From the NCBI GenBank assembly GCA_046293555.1, contig JBKBOT010000012.1, positions 1-44,245 on the forward strand: a DNA stretch of 44,245 nucleotides. Reading direction: 5' to 3'. The notes under the pieces are model-generated. The model saw nothing but the letters and a program-made list of their open reading frames with translations. It did not search any database and was not told the DNA's origin. The translations under genes and the position numbers were made by a program. Shown here in pieces: positions 8,656 to 16,018 of the stretch. The first letter of the stretch is position 1, and each line of letters opens with the position of its first letter. The DNA is from Pyrobaculum sp. (lineage in GTDB: Archaea; Thermoproteota; Thermoprotei; Thermoproteales; Thermoproteaceae).

Positions 8656-9528
8656 TTATAAACCTAGCAGGTGGCTGCCGTCACAATACGTCCCCGGGGT
8701 GTTTAAGTGGAAAAACTCCTCTCTACATATAGAGAACTGCAGGCCGCGGCTTTTCGCCATATGCGCCACGGCGGAGAGAACCCCCTCTCTATATCTCCGG
8801 GGGGCGTACCACTGGCCGTGGAAGTAGGTGCCCTCCCTGAAGTACATCTCTCTCCACAGGGGGGCCCTCTCGGGGATGACTTTTGCCAGCCTGGCGAGGT
8901 TGTCGCCCTTGGCCTTATACGTGCTGGCCACTATATGTCTAGCCCCGGCTTTCGCCGCGGCGTCTATCACTGCCTCTAGGTCGTCCAGCCTGTCGTTTAG
9001 ATATGGGATTATGGGGTCTACTCTCACGCCTACAGCTATCCCAGCTTCTGACAGCCTTCTGACTGCCTCAAGTCGTGCAGACGGCTTGGGGGCCCCGGGC
9101 TCCAATAGGGAGGCTAGCCTTTCGTCCAGCGTGGTGACTGTAAGTTGTACCACCACGCTGCCTCTCGTCAAGATGTCTAGATCTCTGAGGACTAGAGGCG
9201 ACTTGGTGGTTATTAACACCTTATAGCCCCCCTTCAAGAGGGTCTGAAGCGACTTTCTAGTATGGCCCAACGCGGCCTCAAGCGGCGTGTAGGGATCTGA
9301 GGAGTTAGAGAGAGCCACCACGGCGCCTTTAGGTATTTTCTCTAAATCCCGCCTTAATCTCTCCGCCAGCCTTTCTTTAGGCCTGGGGCTAAAGGCGTTG
9401 GGTATATAGGACGTGATGTAACAATAGTGACACTTATGGCCACAGCCGGTATATGGGTTAAGGCCGTATTTTGGGGGACAGGTGCAAAGGGGGTTTCCCC
9501 ACGGGTCAAAAGGCCTTACTAAACTCAC
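8656..9528 (-). CDS. Radical SAM protein, spore-photoproduct-lyase-like family
   Basis: LNPYTGCGHKCHYCY, SNSSDPY, ITTKS and LEPGAP. Start placed at GTG 9528, about 25 nt below a TATA box (ORF track: 9558). Confidence 0.9.
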   Translation of the reverse strand: MSLVRPFDPWGNPLCTCPPKYGLNPYTGCGHKCHYCYITSYIPNAFSPRPKERLAERLRRDLEKIPKGAVVALSNSSDPYTPLEAALGHTRKSLQTLLKGGYKVLITTKSPLVLRDLDILTRGSVVVQLTVTTLDERLASLLEPGAPKPSARLEAVRRLSEAGIAVGVRVDPIIPYLNDRLDDLEAVIDAAAKAGARHIVASTYKAKGDNLARLAKVIPERAPLWREMYFREGTYFHGQWYAPRRYREGVLSAVAHMAKSRGLQFSICREEFFHLNTPGTYCDGSHLLGL

Positions 9529-9629
9529 GACGTAGACATCTCCCAGATATATATCCATGGCGGCATGTCAACACGCCGCATTCTATGTCAAGCGAGGCTT
9601 AGTTTATATATTGTCTCAATGGGGGAAAT

Positions 9630-10346
9630 GTGGGCCTTCGGAGCGGCATCGACCCTCTTGATGCGTACTTGCCAGAAGGTCTTCCGGAAGGGTTTGTGGT
9701 GTTAATTGAAGGGCCTTTGGGCGTGGGGAAGACCTTATACAACATGGCGGCCTCTGCGGCAAGACAAGGCGCGCCGGTGTTATTCTTCCCTATTGACGCC
9801 TTTACAGACGAAGTTCTCGAAGAGCTAGAGAGGCGGGGGGCCCCTCTGGGGAGAGTGGTGGCGATAGACGGCTTTATTGCTCCCAGCGAGCGTTACGTCA
9901 AGTTGAAACCCGCCGTTAGACATAAGCTCGACGCTCCAGATGCCCACACGTTGATGAACAAACTCGTGGAGTTTTCTGACGACTTTAAAAAGGGGGTCGT
10001 TATTGTCGACTCGCTTAACGAGGTGATTATGAGAAGCCCGGGGTCCGCGCTGGAGGTCTTTAGGGCTTTTAAGATCTTTGCTAAATACACCAACTCCATA
10101 ATTGTGGCGACAATACATACAGACATGGAGGAGTTACGTAATGTGGTTGCCGTCATAAGACATCTCGTCGACATAGTGATAGAGCTTGAGGTTGACCCCA
10201 ACCTCGAGAAAATGGGGCTATATATGAGGAGGATGAGAGTTGTGAGAGCCAGGAGGATGCGGGTGCCACACGACTGGATACACTACGAGACAACAGACGG
10301 CAGGGTGGTAGAAGTAGATATAAAAACGATAAAAATCATAATTTAG
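9630..10346 (+). CDS. KaiC/RAD55-like RecA-superfamily ATPase, single domain
   Basis: SGIDPLDAYLPEGLPEG, Walker A GPLGVGKT, Walker B VIVDS, HLVDIVIEL and RRMRVVRAR. Confidence 0.85.
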   Translation: MGLRSGIDPLDAYLPEGLPEGFVVLIEGPLGVGKTLYNMAASAARQGAPVLFFPIDAFTDEVLEELERRGAPLGRVVAIDGFIAPSERYVKLKPAVRHKLDAPDAHTLMNKLVEFSDDFKKGVVIVDSLNEVIMRSPGSALEVFRAFKIFAKYTNSIIVATIHTDMEELRNVVAVIRHLVDIVIELEVDPNLEKMGLYMRRMRVVRARRMRVPHDWIHYETTDGRVVEVDIKTIKIII

Positions 10347-10359
10347 CAGATCGCAACTA

Positions 10360-10980
10360 ATGCGTCTCCTCATTGTTGCCGACATTCACGACGCTTTGGA
10401 CAACGTGAGGTCAATAGACGGCGTTTACGATGCCGTAATAGCCGCTGGAGATTTTACGTACAAAAGCCTGGAGGCAGCCGTAAGGGCGTTAAAGACGTTA
10501 GCCCACATAGCGCCGGTTTACTTTGTCCCCGGCAATTGGGACCCGCCGCAGCTGGCTGGCTACCAGGAGGGAGGCATATATCCGCTACACGGGAGGGTGG
10601 TCCAACTGGGGCCATATCGCGTGGGCGGCGTCGGGGGGAGTCTCCCCACGCCTTTTGACGATATGTTCCGTCTGTCGGAAGGGGAGATAGAGGGCTTGTT
10701 GGCCCGCCTGGCCCCCACGCCGCATATATTGGTGACACATATCCCCCCGCGAGGCTATTTAGACAAAGTGGGGAGGGTGAGACCTGTGGGGAGTCTCGCA
10801 GTGAGAAGATACATAGAGTCTAAACAGCCTCTACTCTCAATACACGGCCACATCCACGAGGACTGGGGGGTAGACGTCTTGGGGGAGACCGTGGTGGTTA
10901 ACCCAGGGCCCTTGGCCTTTGGGCAATATGCGGAAGCTGTAATTGGGGCTAAAGTGGAGGTTCAGATCAAACATGTTTGA
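10360..10980 (+). CDS. Calcineurin-like metallophosphoesterase
   Basis: ADIH, AGD, PGNWD, VTHIPP, HGHIHE and VVNPG motifs. Confidence 0.93.
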   Translation: MRLLIVADIHDALDNVRSIDGVYDAVIAAGDFTYKSLEAAVRALKTLAHIAPVYFVPGNWDPPQLAGYQEGGIYPLHGRVVQLGPYRVGGVGGSLPTPFDDMFRLSEGEIEGLLARLAPTPHILVTHIPPRGYLDKVGRVRPVGSLAVRRYIESKQPLLSIHGHIHEDWGVDVLGETVVVNPGPLAFGQYAEAVIGAKVEVQIKHV

Positions 10981-11343
10981 CGTACTGTACCCCTGGCTCT
11001 TATGGATAGGCGTTGGGGCCTCCCTCTTGTTTTTCGCCGTGGGGCTGGGGGCCTACAGGAGGGCCGTTTTATCTCACGGCTAGAGGGACAGATCCCCCTA
11101 GCTGTGCGGCTCAGACTCTGCCGCCGCCGGCATGAGCCTAAAAGAGATATTTACAATATTGGCAGGGCTGGGGCTCTCCCCGATAGATTCAGACGTGTCC
11201 TCTCTTAGCGAGAGGGGAGGTCTTACGGTAGAGGAGGCGTTGTGGCGTGTCGCCGAGGGGGTCCCCTCGCCGAATTTCAAGAGGTTTGTACTTATCGTCA
11301 CGGAGGCCGCCCGCTCTGGCGCCAGACTCCCAGAGGTGTTAAA
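10973..11343 (+). pseudogene. Frameshifted, truncated type IV pilus membrane platform protein (TadB/TadC/ArlJ-like)
   Basis: Pieces in three frames: MFDVLYPWLLWIGVGASLLFFAVG / RFISRLEGQIPLAVRL / DSAAAGMSLKEIF...GLTVEEALWRVAEGVPSPNFKRFVLIVTEAARSGARLPEVL (T2SS-F pattern). Confidence 0.75.
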
Positions 11344-11877
11344 TATTGGGACAAATATATGTATTACCTCCAGCGCGACCTTTTGGGCTACGGGAAGCTG
11401 GACCCAATGATGCGCGATCCCTACATAGAGGACATACATGTAGACAGCCCCGGCCACGTGTATATCTGGCACAGCAGATGGGAGTCCCTCAAGACAGATG
11501 TGACCCTTGCCGTAGAGGAGAGGACTATGTACAACGTATCTCAGTCCTCGTGGGGAAGACCATCTCTTACGCCAACCCCATTTTAGTTGCCAGAAGGATT
11601 CTGTATAGAGCTGGCCATACCTCCTGTCTCCTCCAAAGGCCCCTCTTTTGTCATCAGGAGGTATTTCGTACTGCCGTTAACGCTCATAGGTCTAGCCAAA
11701 ATGGGCACTATATCTCCAGAGGCGGTGGCCTACCTCTGGCTTATGTTAGATTACGGCCGTAATATAGTCATAGTGGGGCCTACAGGCGCCGGGAAGACCT
11801 CCCTTCTAAACGCCCTGCTTTATTTAATAAGGCCGGGCGCCAAGATTTTAACTATTGAAGACACCAGAGAGATAATA
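11340..11877 (+). pseudogene. Fragment of VirB11/TadA/ArlI-like type IV pilus assembly ATPase
   Basis: YYLQRDLLGYGKLDPMMRDPYIEDI / YVQRISVLVGKTISYANPIL / LPEG...GPSFVIRR...GPTGAGKTSLLNAL...TIEDTREI across three frames; the Walker B and His-box half is missing. Confidence 0.85.
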
Positions 11878-12378
11878 ATTGACGTCGTGCAGACTGAAAC
11901 TTGTCTCGACGAGGCGGCCGGCGGGTTGTATAAAGGGGTGTTGACGGCAGTAGTAGGCCCCATGGGGGCTGGAAAGACGTCATTTATGTTAAGGCTAGCC
12001 TCTTCTCTCAAAAAGCTGGGTAGAGAGGCGGCAATTATAGACGTCGGGGGCACTGGCGCCATCTATGCCGCGAGATATGGGGTGAGGTGGATTGGCGTAG
12101 ATCTAAACCTGGAGGAGTTAATGTGGAATATACACAAGCTGACAAACGAGGGGGTTGAGGCAGTGTTTATACGTGGGCTAGACCTCATCTCTACGCTTTA
12201 CGGCAGACATACGTTAATCACCACGTTGAGGATTTTAGGCAAAATGGCGAGAAGGGGCATCGCCGTTGTGACCTCCCTTAGAGATATCCAGAATGTAGAC
12301 ATACTTTTCGACGTGGTGGTTCAAGTGAATAAGGACAAGATAGAGGCGATTAGATCTCCCGTAGGGAGGGGCGGTTGA
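11878..12378 (+). pseudogene. C-terminal RecA/KaiC-like domain joined in frame to the ATPase remnant (ORF 11587-12378)
   Basis: LDEAAGGLYKGVLTAVVGPMGAGKTSF...AVFIRGLD...FDVVVQV; no start of its own. Confidence 0.65.
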
Positions 12379-12412
12379 GGTAAAATGTTAATTTTTCTAC
12401 CCCCCACATCTT

Positions 12413-13141
12413 GTGTTTACCTACTCGCTCAAATGTGACGTGGAGAAAGCCAGAGAGGCGCTGGGGGGTAACTACGCCGTGGTGGAGCTGGGAGGTGTGG
12501 TGAGAGTTGTAGATAATTTTGTCTCTCTCTACCATAGAGACCTGCCGCTTTGTGTATATAAAAGCTGGAGGATGACATATACAGACATCTCCCAGTTTGG
12601 CATAACGCGGGCAGAGGTCTTGTTGAGAGATAGGGCGATAATACGGCTGTTAAGAGCTGACGAGAGGGCAAACCTCCCCGAGGCCGTGGAGGGGGCGCCC
12701 TTTGTGGTACACGCCATGGATGTAAACGAGGGGGGCGTCATGTATAGAGTCTTCAGGATGGGGGGATATGTGGAGCTGGCGGCCAGAGGCGTGGCTGGAG
12801 GCGTGAGGGAGGCCTTTCACCCAAAGCGGGGGGTAAACGTGCTTGTAGTAGACATCCCGGCCACCCCGCGGTTTCGACATATGTTCCAAGAGGTCTTCGA
12901 GCTGGCTCGGGAGCATTTTGTAGAGCTACACACCACCATGATTTCAGACGTCTGCCCGCTCTGTGGGAGGCGTATGGAGAAGAGGGGGAGGCTGGTGTGG
13001 TGTCCACAGTGTAAAATCCAGCTAAGTAGAGACGTCAATGCGGTGTGGACATTAGTGCGAAACATCGTGAGGAGGCTGGGGAGGGGGCAGCAGCTGGCGG
13101 AACTACGGGAGATCTTTAGGCTTCACTACCCCAACGTCTAA
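12413..13141 (+). CDS. Compact TnpB (IS200/IS605 OrfB)-derived RuvC/Zn-ribbon protein, 242 aa
   Basis: VHAMDVNE (RuvC-I-like), VLVVDIP (RuvC-II position), SDVCPLCG...WCPQC Zn ribbon and SRDVNA (RuvC-III); no tnpA or IS ends seen. Confidence 0.75.
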   Translation: MFTYSLKCDVEKAREALGGNYAVVELGGVVRVVDNFVSLYHRDLPLCVYKSWRMTYTDISQFGITRAEVLLRDRAIIRLLRADERANLPEAVEGAPFVVHAMDVNEGGVMYRVFRMGGYVELAARGVAGGVREAFHPKRGVNVLVVDIPATPRFRHMFQEVFELAREHFVELHTTMISDVCPLCGRRMEKRGRLVWCPQCKIQLSRDVNAVWTLVRNIVRRLGRGQQLAELREIFRLHYPNV

Positions 13142-13170
13142 AATTTTTAAAAGGGGAAAATGGGTGAGAT

Positions 13171-13464
13171 GTGTCTGAATTTAGGACTCCGGGAGAGGGG
13201 GAGGTGTTGGGCAAGGTGTTAGAAATGTTGGGAGACGGCAGGTTTAAAGTCATCTGCGCAGACGGCGAGATACGAGTGGCGCGTCTACCCGGCAGGCTGC
13301 GAAGGAGGCTGTGGCTCAAGACGGGGGATTACGTAATTGTGGCATTATGGGAGTTTGAAAAAGACAAGGGGGACATAGTCCACAAATACGAGAAGAAAGA
13401 CGTAGAGGAGTTAAAACGCCGTGGTTACGCCGAGGCGGTGGAAAACCTGGAGAGATATGTGTGA
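13171..13464 (+). CDS. eif1a: Translation initiation factor aIF-1A
   Basis: GEVLGKVLEMLGDGRFKVICADG...RLPGRLRRRLWLKTGDYVIVALW...KGDIVHKY; TATA-like TTTTTAAAA upstream. Confidence 0.96.
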   Translation: MSEFRTPGEGEVLGKVLEMLGDGRFKVICADGEIRVARLPGRLRRRLWLKTGDYVIVALWEFEKDKGDIVHKYEKKDVEELKRRGYAEAVENLERYV

Positions 13465-13511
13465 CGACGAGTTGGAGTGCTGACTAGTGACGAGAGGCGG
13501 CATGCCGAGAT
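13458..13511 (+). ncRNA. C/D box 2'-O-methylation guide sRNA
   Basis: C GTGACGA (13461-67), 12-nt guide, D' CTGA (13480-83), C' GTGACGA (13487-93), 11-nt guide, D CCGA (13505-08): canonical archaeal spacing. Confidence 0.85.
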
Positions 13512-13940
13512 TCCCCCGTGGGGGTTGACCAAATCTTAGGCCTCCTCAAGGTGATACACGCCCTGGGGGGCCGTGTAGATGTGATGCATATAAACGAGGC
13601 CATCGACGTGGATTTGAGGGAGCTCTCCCACGTGATAGACGTGGCGGAGGCTCTGGGCTTTGTGAGGCACTCCGGCGGCGACGTCGAGCTAACTGAGGGG
13701 GGAGGAGGGCTGTGAAGATGCCCCTGCGGTACCTCCAGCTGGCGTTAAAAGCCAAGATGTTGGCTATAGAGCCCTTCGCCCAGCTTGTAGACCACCTAAA
13801 GAGGGTGGGTGAAGCCAGGCTGGAGGAGGTGTTGCAATACGTCGCAAGTCTTGGCTACATGGAGGAGGGGGCTAGAAAGATCACTGGGCTGTCTTCGCAC
13901 AGCTGGTGGAGATAGATGACGACGTGGTTAAACTCTCCTA
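13502..13940 (+). pseudogene. Frameshifted stand-alone AAA-associated (NitT/TauT ABC ATPase C-terminal, wHTH-like) domain gene
   Basis: MPRFP / VGVDQILGLLKVIHALGGRVDV...AEALGFV...GDVELTEGG / VKMPLRYLQ...IEPF / WAVFAQLVEIDDDVVKLS*; needs three frameshifts. Confidence 0.7.
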
Positions 13941-14285
13941 GATAGAGAAAAAGGTCAAATCCGGCACATGTGTGGAACGCGCTGTTAGACATTGAAAGAT
14001 AGAAAGGCCAAAATCATTGTGGTTAGATACAGACAAAACCTCCACGTCGCATGGAGGCCAGACATATATGCCGCACAGGATGGACTTCAGAAACCTCTCT
14101 GGCGACAACATTACATTCAGACGGCCAAAGATGGCGGTAGTCAAGGCACAGAGCGCAGGAGGGCAGCCAAGACAATTATAAGACAACTATGAGGCTCCGT
14201 CTAAAATTACAAAAGACTTCCAGTAAACACAACAAAAGCCATTCTATAGACTCAGTCCTTAATATATAGACACTTTTTTCTCCAC

Positions 14286-15581
14286 ATGTTCAAGTTGTTG
14301 TATGTAGTCACGGCCGTGGCGGTAATGTTGTTCGCACTGGTTGTGTACAACGTCTTGGAGTACAACAAGCTGAGTGACGCATACAACGCCTTGGCGGCGC
14401 AGTACAACGACCTGGTAAGCAGATACAACGACCTAAACGCAGCACACGCCAAGCTGGTCAATGAATACAACGAGCTGGAGGGTAGGTACAACAGCCTGGA
14501 GGCTGATTACAACCAACTACGTGGGGAGTATAGACAGCTGTACGACAGCCACACCGCCCTCCAGAACTCATACCGCCAGCTGGACGCAGCCTACGGCAAG
14601 CTCAAAAGAGAACACGAGGCGGCGGTCAACGAGTTGGCCAGACTGCGGAGTGACTACCGCACCCTCTCAGAGAGATATGCCAAGCTGCAGAGCGATTACT
14701 ATTCTCTTTCCGAGAGATATGCCAAGCTGGATAGTGACTACAGTTCTCTCTCCAAGAGATATATAGCTCTCGAACGGGATTATTACAACTTAAGGATGAA
14801 ATACATAGCCCTATGGAATAACTACACAATTCTCAGAGATATATATAACTCCCTATCGAGTCAGTACCCCATATGGAGGCAATATAACACAGTTATTTCT
14901 AGCTACAAACAGTGGTGGGAGTGGTACCTTACATTCATCAGCTGGGATCTCTCCATACCTAGAACGCTGAATGAAAGTGAAATCAGAAATCTCGTCCCTC
15001 TGGTCCGCAATTTGACAAATCCAAACGACGACTGGGGCAGCCTACTGGCCTTATACCGCTATGTGGTAGACAACATAGCATACGCTCACGACATCCCGAT
15101 GCCAATCGCCCCAAGGGTCGCCGAGCTCGAGTCTGGATATATTTCCTACATTCTTAGAGACGACTACGCCCAGTCTCCCAACATGACATTGACGTTGAGA
15201 CAGGGCGACTGTGATGACATGGCCATATTGCTATATGCTATGATTAAGGCATACGACTGGTACATACTGGGCAAAGACCACGACCTGTGGTTCATGTATG
15301 TGAAGTTTGAAGACAGCGCCCACCTGGCGCTGGCGTTCCCGTCAGGCAAAAACCCGACAAGACTGACGATACTGGACCCCGCCGGACAGTACTACACCGG
15401 CATGCCAGACGAGCTCGCCGCCAGAGATCCGCTGGACGAACTACTGCGGTATAAAGAGTACTGGGCCCAAGACGGCCACAAGATTGTGTACATCGCCATC
15501 TATGAGGTACGCGGCGGAGAAGCAGTATTGTTAGTAGATGGAAATATCGACAAGGTGGCGGACTATATCAGAAACCACTAG
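14286..15581 (+). CDS. Membrane-anchored coiled-coil protein with C-terminal transglutaminase-like (Cys-His-Asp) domain
   Basis: N-terminal TM helix, about 180 aa of YxxL heptads, then YRYVVDNIAYAHD, QSPNMTL..RQGDCDDMAIL, SAHLALA and ILDP; several N-x-S/T sequons. Confidence 0.88.
   Translation: MFKLLYVVTAVAVMLFALVVYNVLEYNKLSDAYNALAAQYNDLVSRYNDLNAAHAKLVNEYNELEGRYNSLEADYNQLRGEYRQLYDSHTALQNSYRQLDAAYGKLKREHEAAVNELARLRSDYRTLSERYAKLQSDYYSLSERYAKLDSDYSSLSKRYIALERDYYNLRMKYIALWNNYTILRDIYNSLSSQYPIWRQYNTVISSYKQWWEWYLTFISWDLSIPRTLNESEIRNLVPLVRNLTNPNDDWGSLLALYRYVVDNIAYAHDIPMPIAPRVAELESGYISYILRDDYAQSPNMTLTLRQGDCDDMAILLYAMIKAYDWYILGKDHDLWFMYVKFEDSAHLALAFPSGKNPTRLTILDPAGQYYTGMPDELAARDPLDELLRYKEYWAQDGHKIVYIAIYEVRGGEAVLLVDGNIDKVADYIRNH
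14649..14774 (+). repeat. Three imperfect 42-bp (14-aa) tandem repeats inside the coiled coil
   Basis: SDYRTLSERYAKLQ / SDYYSLSERYAKLD / SDYSSLSKRYIALE; gagagatatgccaagctg is identical in units 1 and 2. Confidence 0.85.
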
Positions 15582-15919
15582 CTTTATCTTCAAGTCACGT
15601 TTTTTATACACTCCACGATGTCCCCTCGATCTTGTGCAGTGAGTAGTGACTCTAACCACGCCCCCGCTTCAACTGCGTAATCATTAGAGGTATTTAACTG
15701 TTTCAATTCGCCAGTCCTCTGTCAGAAGTGGCGACCTTTTCGGCGGGTTTGGGCTGAGACATAGGCCCAACCTAAGCCTGACCTGACGGCAATATGGCCA
15801 TAAGTGCCGTCGTTCACAAGACTGTTTAAAGTCCACTAGATGTGTGCCGTCTGACCTCAGGCTGTTCTAAAGCCCCTCTCACGGACCTGGGGCTTAAAGT
15901 CCAGGGAGTTTTAGCCATA

Positions 15920-16018
15920 CTAGACGTAGGCATATAGTAGGTCGAGATATTTCTCGAGTGGCAGGTCTATAGCCGCGTCTGCCACAATTTTGGCCGCCCC
16001 CGTGTTTAGTGCCACATC
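15920..16018 (-). pseudogene. Possible gene remnant (DVALNTGAAKIVADAAIDLPLEKYLDLLYAYV*)
   Basis: Protein-like stretch with no credible start, followed by in-frame stops. Confidence 0.3.

Follow-up and report, generated by a model that had tools for sequence, protein, structure and literature searches.

The window analysed here, a 44,245-nt stretch of Pyrobaculum sp. DNA (GenBank assembly GCA_046293555.1, contig JBKBOT010000012.1), encodes a 242-residue protein, hereafter mini-TnpB, that descends from TnpB and is vertically inherited, under purifying selection and immobile. Cas12 and Fanzor both go back to TnpB, whose gene is among the most abundant in prokaryotes. Mini-TnpB appears to be an immobilised, host-retained descendant of crenarchaeal TnpB, normally single-copy. 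It seems to have kept the zinc ribbon, a reduced RuvC core and, in residues 1-93, a WED-like beta-barrel; REC is missing, as is a large part of the helical insert that separates RuvC-I from RuvC-II and, probably, the lid that follows RuvC-II. From the conservation of its residues and from a structural model, we lean towards the view that it is an active metal-dependent nuclease whose substrate is chosen by protein surfaces, with no guide encoded in cis. In the proposed mechanism, mini-TnpB would act as a metal-dependent RuvC endonuclease using D103, D147 and D207, and would find its substrate through protein contacts involving the WED barrel, the zinc ribbon, the C-terminal helix (225-238) and perhaps a partner protein, with no guide RNA encoded adjacently. 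This reading is the most likely one because REC is absent yet the three carboxylates are invariant. A miniaturised, host-fixed TnpB derivative had been proposed in an earlier note made from the sequence of the window alone, and this proposal is borne out by orthologues of the same length in 26 of the 28 other genomes of the family, by a low ratio of nonsynonymous to synonymous substitution (dN/dS) and by a predicted fold that contains both RuvC and the zinc ribbon.

Sequence evidence for descent from TnpB

The gene and the domain that ties it to TnpB are located as follows.

12413..13141, + strand: coding sequence of mini-TnpB including the stop codon, from the open reading frame (ORF) listing and its translation (protein P0001); 242 aa, GTG start, no internal stop
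12953..13012, + strand: zinc ribbon (TNB domain, Pfam PF07282), C181-x2-C184 ... C197-x2-C200, with four invariant cysteines

The ORF is intact, as the earlier note had described it, and its GTG start is correct, since the orthologues begin with the same M/V-F/L-T-Y. The PF07282 profile (Cas12f1-like TNB, the zinc ribbon of TnpB) matches residues 153-212 with 27.4 bits, just above the curated cut-off of 26.3. When a profile of mini-TnpB was aligned by hhalign with one built from 16 full-length TnpBs (362-510 aa) that genomes of the same order encode, a probability of 98.6% and an E value of 1.4e-15 were obtained, columns 154-218 of mini-TnpB being placed on 303-371 of TnpB. The sequence alignments did not reach RuvC-I and RuvC-II: against one and then against 16 full-length TnpBs, hhalign covered the C-terminal 58-65 columns only. 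A sequence search of the PDB with the mini-TnpB profile gave weak matches, the best (E 0.028) to a solved Cas12n chain. PADLOC returned only weak matches of the protein to Cas12 C-termini (E 1.6e-4 to 4e-3), which does not support placing it in any known defence system.

Local motifs of a 424-aa TnpB from the same order nonetheless have their likeness in mini-TnpB, IDVNEN corresponding to MDVNEG, IVVERLP to LVVDIP and DRDV to SRDV. The lengths of the segments between these motifs, counted by hand on this one TnpB, are given below.

Residues before RuvC-I: 102 in mini-TnpB, 187 in the 424-aa TnpB (shorter by 85)
RuvC-I to RuvC-II: 44 in mini-TnpB, 92 in the 424-aa TnpB (shorter by 48)
RuvC-II to RuvC-III: 60 in mini-TnpB, 86 in the 424-aa TnpB (shorter by 26)
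Residues after RuvC-III: 35 in mini-TnpB, 58 in the 424-aa TnpB (shorter by 23)

The spacing reported in the earlier note, 44 residues between RuvC-I and RuvC-II and about 100 ahead of RuvC-I, agrees with the distance from D103 to D147 and with the 102 residues that precede D103. On this evidence, taken with the predicted fold, mini-TnpB descends from TnpB.

Predicted structure

Three regions can be distinguished in the model of the protein.

12413..12691, + strand: N-terminal domain, residues 1-93, beta-rich with seven strands and short helices; WED-like, without a REC insertion
12692..13084, + strand: RuvC (RNase H-like) domain, residues 94-224, interrupted by the zinc ribbon ahead of its final catalytic helix
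13085..13138, + strand: C-terminal helix and tail, residues 225-242, with the almost invariant QLAELRE.F.L.YP.V; helix 225-238 in the model

The AlphaFold2 model (25 orthologues) is confident, with a predicted local distance difference test score (pLDDT) of 89.9 and a predicted template modelling score (pTM) of 0.87. Its best Foldseek matches in the PDB are all Cas12f, TnpB (8h1j, 8iaz), Cas12g and Fanzor, at a probability of 0.9-1.0; the fold comparison that the earlier note had proposed therefore leads to Cas12f and TnpB, at 0.99-1.00 and with a similarity beyond chance. A RuvC fold split by a zinc ribbon, which marks the superfamily, is found in the model. REC, which marks canonical TnpB, is absent, only 93 residues standing ahead of the RuvC domain.

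The N-terminal 95 residues, folded alone (pLDDT 89.7), were compared with 48,161 PDB representatives. The seven best of these chains are Cas12g, Cas12X, Cas12-2, LaTranC, TnpB 8h1j, Cas12n and Cas12X2, each with 76-84 aligned residues and a chain range that spans a large insert. With 8h1j, residues 1-83 of the model fall on 6-175 of the chain, so that 76 residues are aligned and about 94 chain residues have no counterpart. In the model, residues 1-93 most resemble the WED beta-barrel of TnpB and Cas12. The earlier note had supposed that the REC and WED elements were largely deleted; of this, the loss of REC stands, while the supposed loss of WED is called into question by the WED-like domain that residues 1-93 seem to retain. 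What the loss of REC implies can be judged from ISDra2 TnpB, in which, according to excerpts of the published description (PMC13639567), the REC residues Y52, S56, K76, F77 and Q80 read the target-adjacent motif (TAM) together with WED residues, REC and RuvC form the heteroduplex channel, and the active site consists of D191, E278 and D361.

The C-terminal helix and tail have no aligned counterpart in TnpB and, judging by their conservation, may speculatively serve as an interaction surface. A PIP-like (PCNA-binding) motif was considered by eye in the C-terminal REIFRLYYPNV, and no claim is made for it, the aromatic pair not being conserved in genera 2 and 3 of the survey described below. The prediction of a homodimer scored 0.09 against a mark of 0.42 and is uninformative either way.

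Distribution, inheritance and selection

The genome survey was order-wide and comprised the family of the window, probably Thermoproteaceae (28 other genomes, in three genera numbered here 1 to 3), and two further families (33 genomes); working labels beginning with G, C and L denote genomes, contigs and loci. A full-length orthologue (242-245 aa) is present, normally in one copy, in 26/28 other genomes of the family, namely in 16/17 of genus 1, 8/9 of genus 2 and 2/2 of genus 3 (41-43% identity), and both genomes in which it is missing are incomplete (61% and 73% complete). The other two families yielded weak matches to the C-terminal zinc ribbon only, in 7/33 genomes and mostly in frames of about 290-470 aa. 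Among 5.8 billion clustered proteins searched at E <= 0.001, there were 25 matches, 22 of them of 237-243 aa at 62-88% identity with source names Pyrobaculum or Thermoproteus, and the remaining 3 fragments of 143-190 aa. Scanned with a HMMER profile, 1.84 billion representatives yielded 13 proteins, including 3 full-length mini-TnpB clusters, of which one is a divergent 229-aa metagenomic form, the others being fragments, a repetitive 1348-aa artefact and short proteins that match the zinc ribbon only; in that scan there was no wider family and no full-length relative beyond the mini-TnpB family. Cultured species carry mini-TnpB as well, the orthologue of P. aerophilum being PAE1076.

The gene tree requires one change per genus, with weak support for genus 1 (65/69). 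By the Nei-Gojobori method, the 12 most closely related pairs of genus 1 have dN/dS values of 0.044-0.154, and the 8 most closely related pairs of genus 2 have values of 0.075-0.119; the median is 0.093 over the 95/136 genus-1 pairs that have a finite dS. The tests of conservation and of dN/dS that the earlier note had called for are thereby answered by a normally single copy in 26/28 genomes and by the values just given for the closest genus-1 pairs. Each of the three observations that it had named as fatal to its proposal, namely a lack of orthologues of the same length, a dN/dS near 1 and a predicted structure without a RuvC fold, was looked for and none was made. Mini-TnpB is vertically inherited, under purifying selection and immobile, and the best explanation of its distribution is that it dates back roughly to the common ancestor of the family to which Pyrobaculum and Thermoproteus belong. 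A 33-residue insertion in one genus-2 copy (L026, G055) is an assembly run of N and no real variant. In one genus-1 assembly (G049), the whole neighbourhood occurs twice, with mini-TnpB and a radical-SAM gene on both C20 and C59, and the copy on C20 (L068, 957-1867) is split by an internal duplication of approximately residues 102-150; since the whole neighbourhood is present twice, the likely cause is a mixture of two populations in this assembly, by mixed binning or by mis-assembly.

It is scarcely credible that mini-TnpB is a decaying remnant of an insertion sequence (IS) of the IS200/IS605 type, that is, an internally deleted and functionless tnpB. Such an origin would suit the broken gene upstream and some of the names under which these proteins are deposited, which comprise 'zinc ribbon domain-containing protein', 'hypothetical protein PAE1076', 'putative transposase' and 'transposase'. 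It is already contradicted by frames of 242-245 aa that are intact across three genera, by a dN/dS of about 0.1, by a conserved neighbourhood and by a copy number that is normally one, against none to about 54 for real TnpBs; the gene tree and the saturated dS also speak against recent horizontal copies.

The same distribution bears on whether mini-TnpB could be a primitive TnpB from before the acquisition of REC, a relic of an ancestral WED-RuvC protein that was never secondarily reduced. An unpolarised direction of change leaves some room for this view. We nevertheless find it very doubtful, given a protein that is confined to one archaeal family, with 3 full-length clusters among 1.84 billion representatives, that already has the zinc ribbon insertion and whose motifs (DVNE, VV-acid-x-P, a TS..CP.CG-like block and RDVNA) resemble those of full-length TnpBs of the same order.

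Mobility and guide RNA

No inverted repeats of >= 10 nt (seed 7, arms <= 60 nt apart) were found in 12100-13500, and no Y1 transposase (PF01797) was found in the assembly of the window (96% complete, 145 contigs), in line with the earlier note, which had seen neither tnpA nor an IS end hairpin. That assembly has no full-length TnpB either, mini-TnpB being its only TnpB-like gene, and in two complete genomes (G035 and G059) mini-TnpB is the sole PF07282 match. Across the family, PF07282 matches range from 1 to 55 per genome (full-length TnpB from none to about 54), while mini-TnpB is constant. The complete genus-1 genome G038 has 55 PF07282 matches, mostly TnpB frames of 360-520 aa, against 1-10 in the other complete genomes of the genus, which suggests a lineage-specific IS burst.

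According to excerpts of PMC10705468, the sequence of a canonical omegaRNA overlaps both tnpB, at its 3' end, and the right end of the element. At mini-TnpB, the 80 nt past the stop codon show no relationship from one lineage to another, and the following gene begins within about 10 nt of the stop in at least 6 loci. In the window, the stop codon TAA (13139-13141) directly abuts AATTTTTAAAAGG, the AT-rich box of the gene for aIF-1A, whose ORF begins at 13171 (Pfam eIF-1a, E 2.6e-24), in agreement with the earlier note, which had placed the aIF-1A promoter at the stop. Synonymous diversity is 0.61-0.85 across all 15-codon windows of the mini-TnpB ORF, with no dip at the 3' end; the synonymous sites are near saturation, and therefore only strong constraint would show. 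Rfam gave no match at E <= 1 in 9000-16000. There is no conserved cis RNA at mini-TnpB, and a cis-encoded omegaRNA is unlikely because no tnpA, end hairpins, conserved flank or synonymous constraint were found. Nor can mini-TnpB depend on RNA from resident IS copies, since it is the sole TnpB-like gene in G035, in G059 and in the assembly of the window. As far as sequence can indicate it, guide independence becomes likelier with flanks that are not conserved and synonymous sites that show no constraint.

A guide could still be supplied in trans, from elsewhere in the chromosome or in the form of another abundant small RNA, and mini-TnpB would then still be RNA-guided, its kept WED and RuvC surfaces gripping the scaffold and the REC lobe being replaced by another protein, either a partner or a second mini-TnpB. 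Cas12f dimerises in this manner, a second copy standing in for its REC lobe. The retained WED-like domain would be at home in such an arrangement, every characterised active relative of the fold among the structure matches is RNA-guided, and the domesticated TnpBs known as TldR retained their guides, according to excerpts of PMC10705468. We consider a trans-acting guide rather unlikely, given that conserved non-coding flanks and the room for them are lacking, the next gene following within about 10 nt in the at least 6 loci mentioned, that synonymous constraint is missing from the 3' portion of the ORF, in which the scaffold of a TnpB starts, that Rfam has no match in 9000-16000 and that the 93-residue N-terminal domain offers no counterpart to the REC residues responsible for reading the TAM and enclosing the channel. 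Moreover, mini-TnpB persists in complete genomes without any other TnpB, which hence hold no IS-borne omegaRNA to borrow.

The gene is preceded by a promoter-like element.

12381-12399, + strand: TATA-like AT-rich box TAAAATGTTAATTTTTCTA, read from the sequence, -32 to -14 relative to the GTG

A T/A-rich box stands at a similar upstream distance in most orthologous loci, whereas no clear one is seen ahead of the ATG of mini-TnpB in the two genus-3 loci. Of the AT-rich promoter that the earlier note had assigned to mini-TnpB, the box is confirmed and recurs in most orthologues, while its function as a promoter is only presumed; its placement fits a leaderless transcript belonging to mini-TnpB itself. 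Sequencing runs matched to 12300-13500 comprised DNA metagenomes, one of them probably the sample of origin, and no RNA run.

Putative active-site residues and catalysis

The three acidic residues attributed to the active site are encoded as follows.

12719..12721, + strand: D103 (GAT), RuvC-I, motif HAMDVNE; invariant in 25/25 sequences, end of model strand 97-105
12851..12853, + strand: D147 (GAC), RuvC-II position, motif VVDIP; invariant in 25/25 sequences, end of the fourth model strand 141-147
13031..13033, + strand: D207 (GAC), RuvC-III, motif RDVNA; invariant in 25/25 sequences, paired by hhalign with DRDV of full-length TnpBs

All the residues that the earlier note had named, D103, D147, D207 and C181/C184/C197/C200, were recovered at its positions by alignment numbering, the Asp codons being checked, and these seven together with 55 other positions are invariant in 25/25 sequences, down to 41% identity. 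In the model, the three carboxylates are found at the ends of strand 1 and strand 4 and at the start of the last RNase H-like helix. Full-length TnpBs of the order have IDVNEN at the place of D103, and the motif around D147 resembles IVVERLP of a full-length TnpB, with Asp where Glu is usual. The order of strands in the model and this motif likeness, rather than a residue-level superposition, suggest that D147 occupies the RuvC-II position.

If the acidic residues were kept for metal-dependent folding or binding only, mini-TnpB would be a nucleic-acid binder or a regulator without catalysis, acting with RNA or on its own, in a role like that of TldR or Cas12m. With Asp in place of Glu at RuvC-II the side chain is shorter, substrate loading could be abolished now that the lid and REC are lost, and most exapted TnpBs are regulatory according to excerpts of a published census (PMC10691335). 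We hold this alternative to be improbable: the three carboxylates and their adjoining residues (DVNE, VD.P, RDVNA) are invariant in 25 sequences down to 41% identity, Asp still supplies a carboxylate, and no conserved target-adjacent partner gene, such as one for a sigma factor or flagellin, lies near mini-TnpB. TldRs and other regulatory derivatives, by contrast, are recognised by their lost triads in the excerpted parts of PMC10705468 and PMC10691335.

Several observations weigh against an active nuclease that works without a guide. The weakest link is the RuvC-II residue itself, which is Asp and not Glu. The weak HMMER alignment to the Cas12n chain (E 0.028) pairs VNILIVD with LNRVVLDAAFG, a motif downstream of RuvC-II in TnpBs, and because the stretch around D147 is paired there with another motif, it is uncertain whether D147 corresponds to the catalytic Glu. 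Further points are the retention of the WED-like domain, the near-saturated synonymous sites (overall proportion of synonymous differences, pS, 0.70), at which a short or weakly constrained overlapping RNA could escape, and the one broken second copy (G049:C20), found in the probably mixed assembly.

Genomic neighbourhood

Neighbouring genes were counted in the 1.5-kb flanks of 26 orthologous loci.

aIF-1A: genus 1, 12/16; genus 2, 0/8; genus 3, 2/2
Phosphoesterase: genus 1, 9/16; genera 2 and 3, not found in the flanks
KaiC-like gene: genus 1, 7/16; genus 2, 8/8; genus 3, not found in the flanks
Radical-SAM gene: genus 1, 2/16; genus 2, 8/8; genus 3, 2/2

The neighbourhood is thus conserved yet reshuffled, its recurrent members being the genes for a radical-SAM protein, a KaiC-like ATPase, a calcineurin-like phosphoesterase and aIF-1A. 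General synteny with aIF-1A, which the earlier note had expected, did not hold: where the gene is nearby in genera 1 and 3, it is mostly divergent (11 loci) and follows mini-TnpB on the same strand, the arrangement of the window, in 3 loci only, and in three complete genus-2 genomes it lies 190-690 kb from mini-TnpB. A functional link between mini-TnpB and aIF-1A was rejected on account of these distances. The radical-SAM gene is 1.5-6 kb off in eight complete or near-complete genus-1 genomes. In 7/9 of the genus-1 loci that have the phosphoesterase, it is directly 3' of mini-TnpB on the same strand, with the match beginning 3-52 nt past the stop, and the two genes may form a Pyrobaculum-specific operon. 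The phosphoesterase of the window (calcineurin-like, 206 aa, 10360-10980, + strand) matches the PADLOC candidate defence family PDC-S10 (E 4.5e-19). No gene is a constant operon partner across the loci, and the linkage therefore looks like inherited position. No cas genes were found among the neighbours of mini-TnpB. Three genomes of the other two families were examined, and in them the radical-SAM gene has no neighbours from the window within 1.5 kb; the ancestral insertion site is therefore not reconstructable.

Immediately upstream of mini-TnpB in the window, the gene at 11242-12378 (+ strand) is broken by an in-frame stop after 114 codons and has two Walker A motifs, which agrees with the description in the earlier note of an intact frame beside decaying genes. 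This arrangement suggests a fused remnant of a secretion-type ATPase: a fragment of type II/IV secretion type is followed by a RecA/KaiC-like part, and another ORF (11132-11410) overlaps it in a different frame. Intact relatives of the second half (43% identity) are encoded upstream of mini-TnpB in two genus-1 loci (L010, L012).

Downstream, the aIF-1A reading frame of the window (13141-13464, + strand) has a GTG start at 13171, and its N-terminus MSEFRTPGEGE matches that of an orthologue with an ATG start (L011); its transcript seems to be leaderless, judging by the sequence. Two small ORFs of 65 and 67 aa, overlapping by 4 nt, follow at 13518-13915 (+ strand); PF09821 (AAA-associated C-terminal domain, E 3.3e-7) matches the first, and both are conserved beside aIF-1A in several genus-1 loci. 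Further on, 14286-15581 (+ strand) encodes a 431-aa protein with a long N-terminal coiled coil of ...Y(N/S)xL... heptad-like repeats and a globular C-terminal part. In genus 3 (L027, L028), a RIO-type kinase gene is situated between mini-TnpB and aIF-1A, and the radical-SAM gene comes after mini-TnpB on the same strand.

Comparison with known systems

Compared with the TnpBs of IS200/IS605 and IS607 transposons (ISDra2, 8h1j), whose WED its N-terminal barrel resembles, mini-TnpB has 242 aa, against about 360-510 aa in full-length TnpBs of the same order, is without REC and has Asp instead of Glu at RuvC-II; it is also without tnpA, end hairpins and a conserved right end or omegaRNA, and is single-copy and vertical. 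Cas12f, which supplies the best Foldseek matches (7wju and 8j12, probability 0.99-1.00), has an architecture of WED, RuvC and zinc finger that mini-TnpB, with its WED-like domain, seems to share, and differs in a length of about 400-530 aa that includes REC and in having CRISPR arrays and a tracrRNA; unlike at Cas12f loci, no repeat-family or RNA match was found in 9000-16000. The Holliday junction resolvases RuvC, A22 and YqgF are homodimers that act on four-way junctions with a D-E-D-D site and have no zinc ribbon. Sequence and profile comparisons place mini-TnpB with TnpB rather than with the RuvC-type resolvases; resolvases (poxvirus A22-like, RuvC, YqgF) lack both zinc ribbon and WED and have different motifs.

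The nearest precedent is found among the non-mobile halobacterial TnpBs of about 220 aa with an apparently active RuvC, for example WP_004214924.1, that are mentioned under 'Other nonmobile TnpB systems' in Altae-Tran et al. 2023 PNAS (PMC10691335). Like mini-TnpB, these are archaeal, very short, non-mobile and lineage-fixed, with RuvC apparently active. The halobacterial type is described there as a RuvC domain alone, to which mini-TnpB adds the 93-residue WED-like domain; it comes from a different phylum and was compared by its description only. The two do not seem close in sequence, since the profile scan found no full-length relative outside the mini-TnpB family. TldR and other exapted TnpBs resemble mini-TnpB in having lost mobility and in being kept for a new role by a host or prophage, as far as the excerpts of PMC10705468 and PMC10691335 go. 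TldRs, however, have lost the catalytic triad, are of near-full size, use a downstream guide RNA and are bacterial or phage-borne, whereas mini-TnpB has invariant carboxylates, no REC lobe and no guide locus that could be found.

Judged by titles and abstracts, literature searches returned nothing on this mini-TnpB family, on PAE1076 or on TnpB in Pyrobaculum, and the clade may be contained in Table S5 of the supplementary information of PMC10691335. The earlier note had spoken of an undescribed system; this holds for the family, which was not found in print, and does not hold for the kind, which is mentioned in the 2023 census (PMC10691335). Mini-TnpB is a real, well-supported and uncharacterised TnpB exaptation of a kind, the short non-mobile archaeal TnpB, already mentioned in print.

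Implications

To our knowledge, domestication of TnpB has either added domains, as in Cas12, or killed the nuclease and kept the guide, as in TldR, Cas12k and Cas12m. Mini-TnpB seems to be the reverse case, in which the recognition lobe and the guide locus are gone and strong purifying selection has kept the catalytic carboxylates unchanged in at least three genera. It is possible, though short of probable, that the family has throughout its existence maintained a guide-free host nuclease derived from TnpB, consisting of a minimal WED-RuvC-zinc-ribbon core and directed by the structure of its substrate or by a partner. Were this true, the usual path of growth from TnpB to Cas12 would have been reversed, the first conserved guide-free cellular enzyme born of an RNA-guided lineage would be at hand, and the smallest functional core of the TnpB/Cas12 fold would be defined. 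If active, mini-TnpB would show what a bare WED-RuvC-zinc-ribbon core does alone, would set a lower size bound for the engineering of compact editors and would be a nuclease peculiar to this lineage in the DNA or RNA metabolism of the hyperthermophilic Thermoproteaceae, where repair, RNA processing and defence are conceivable roles.

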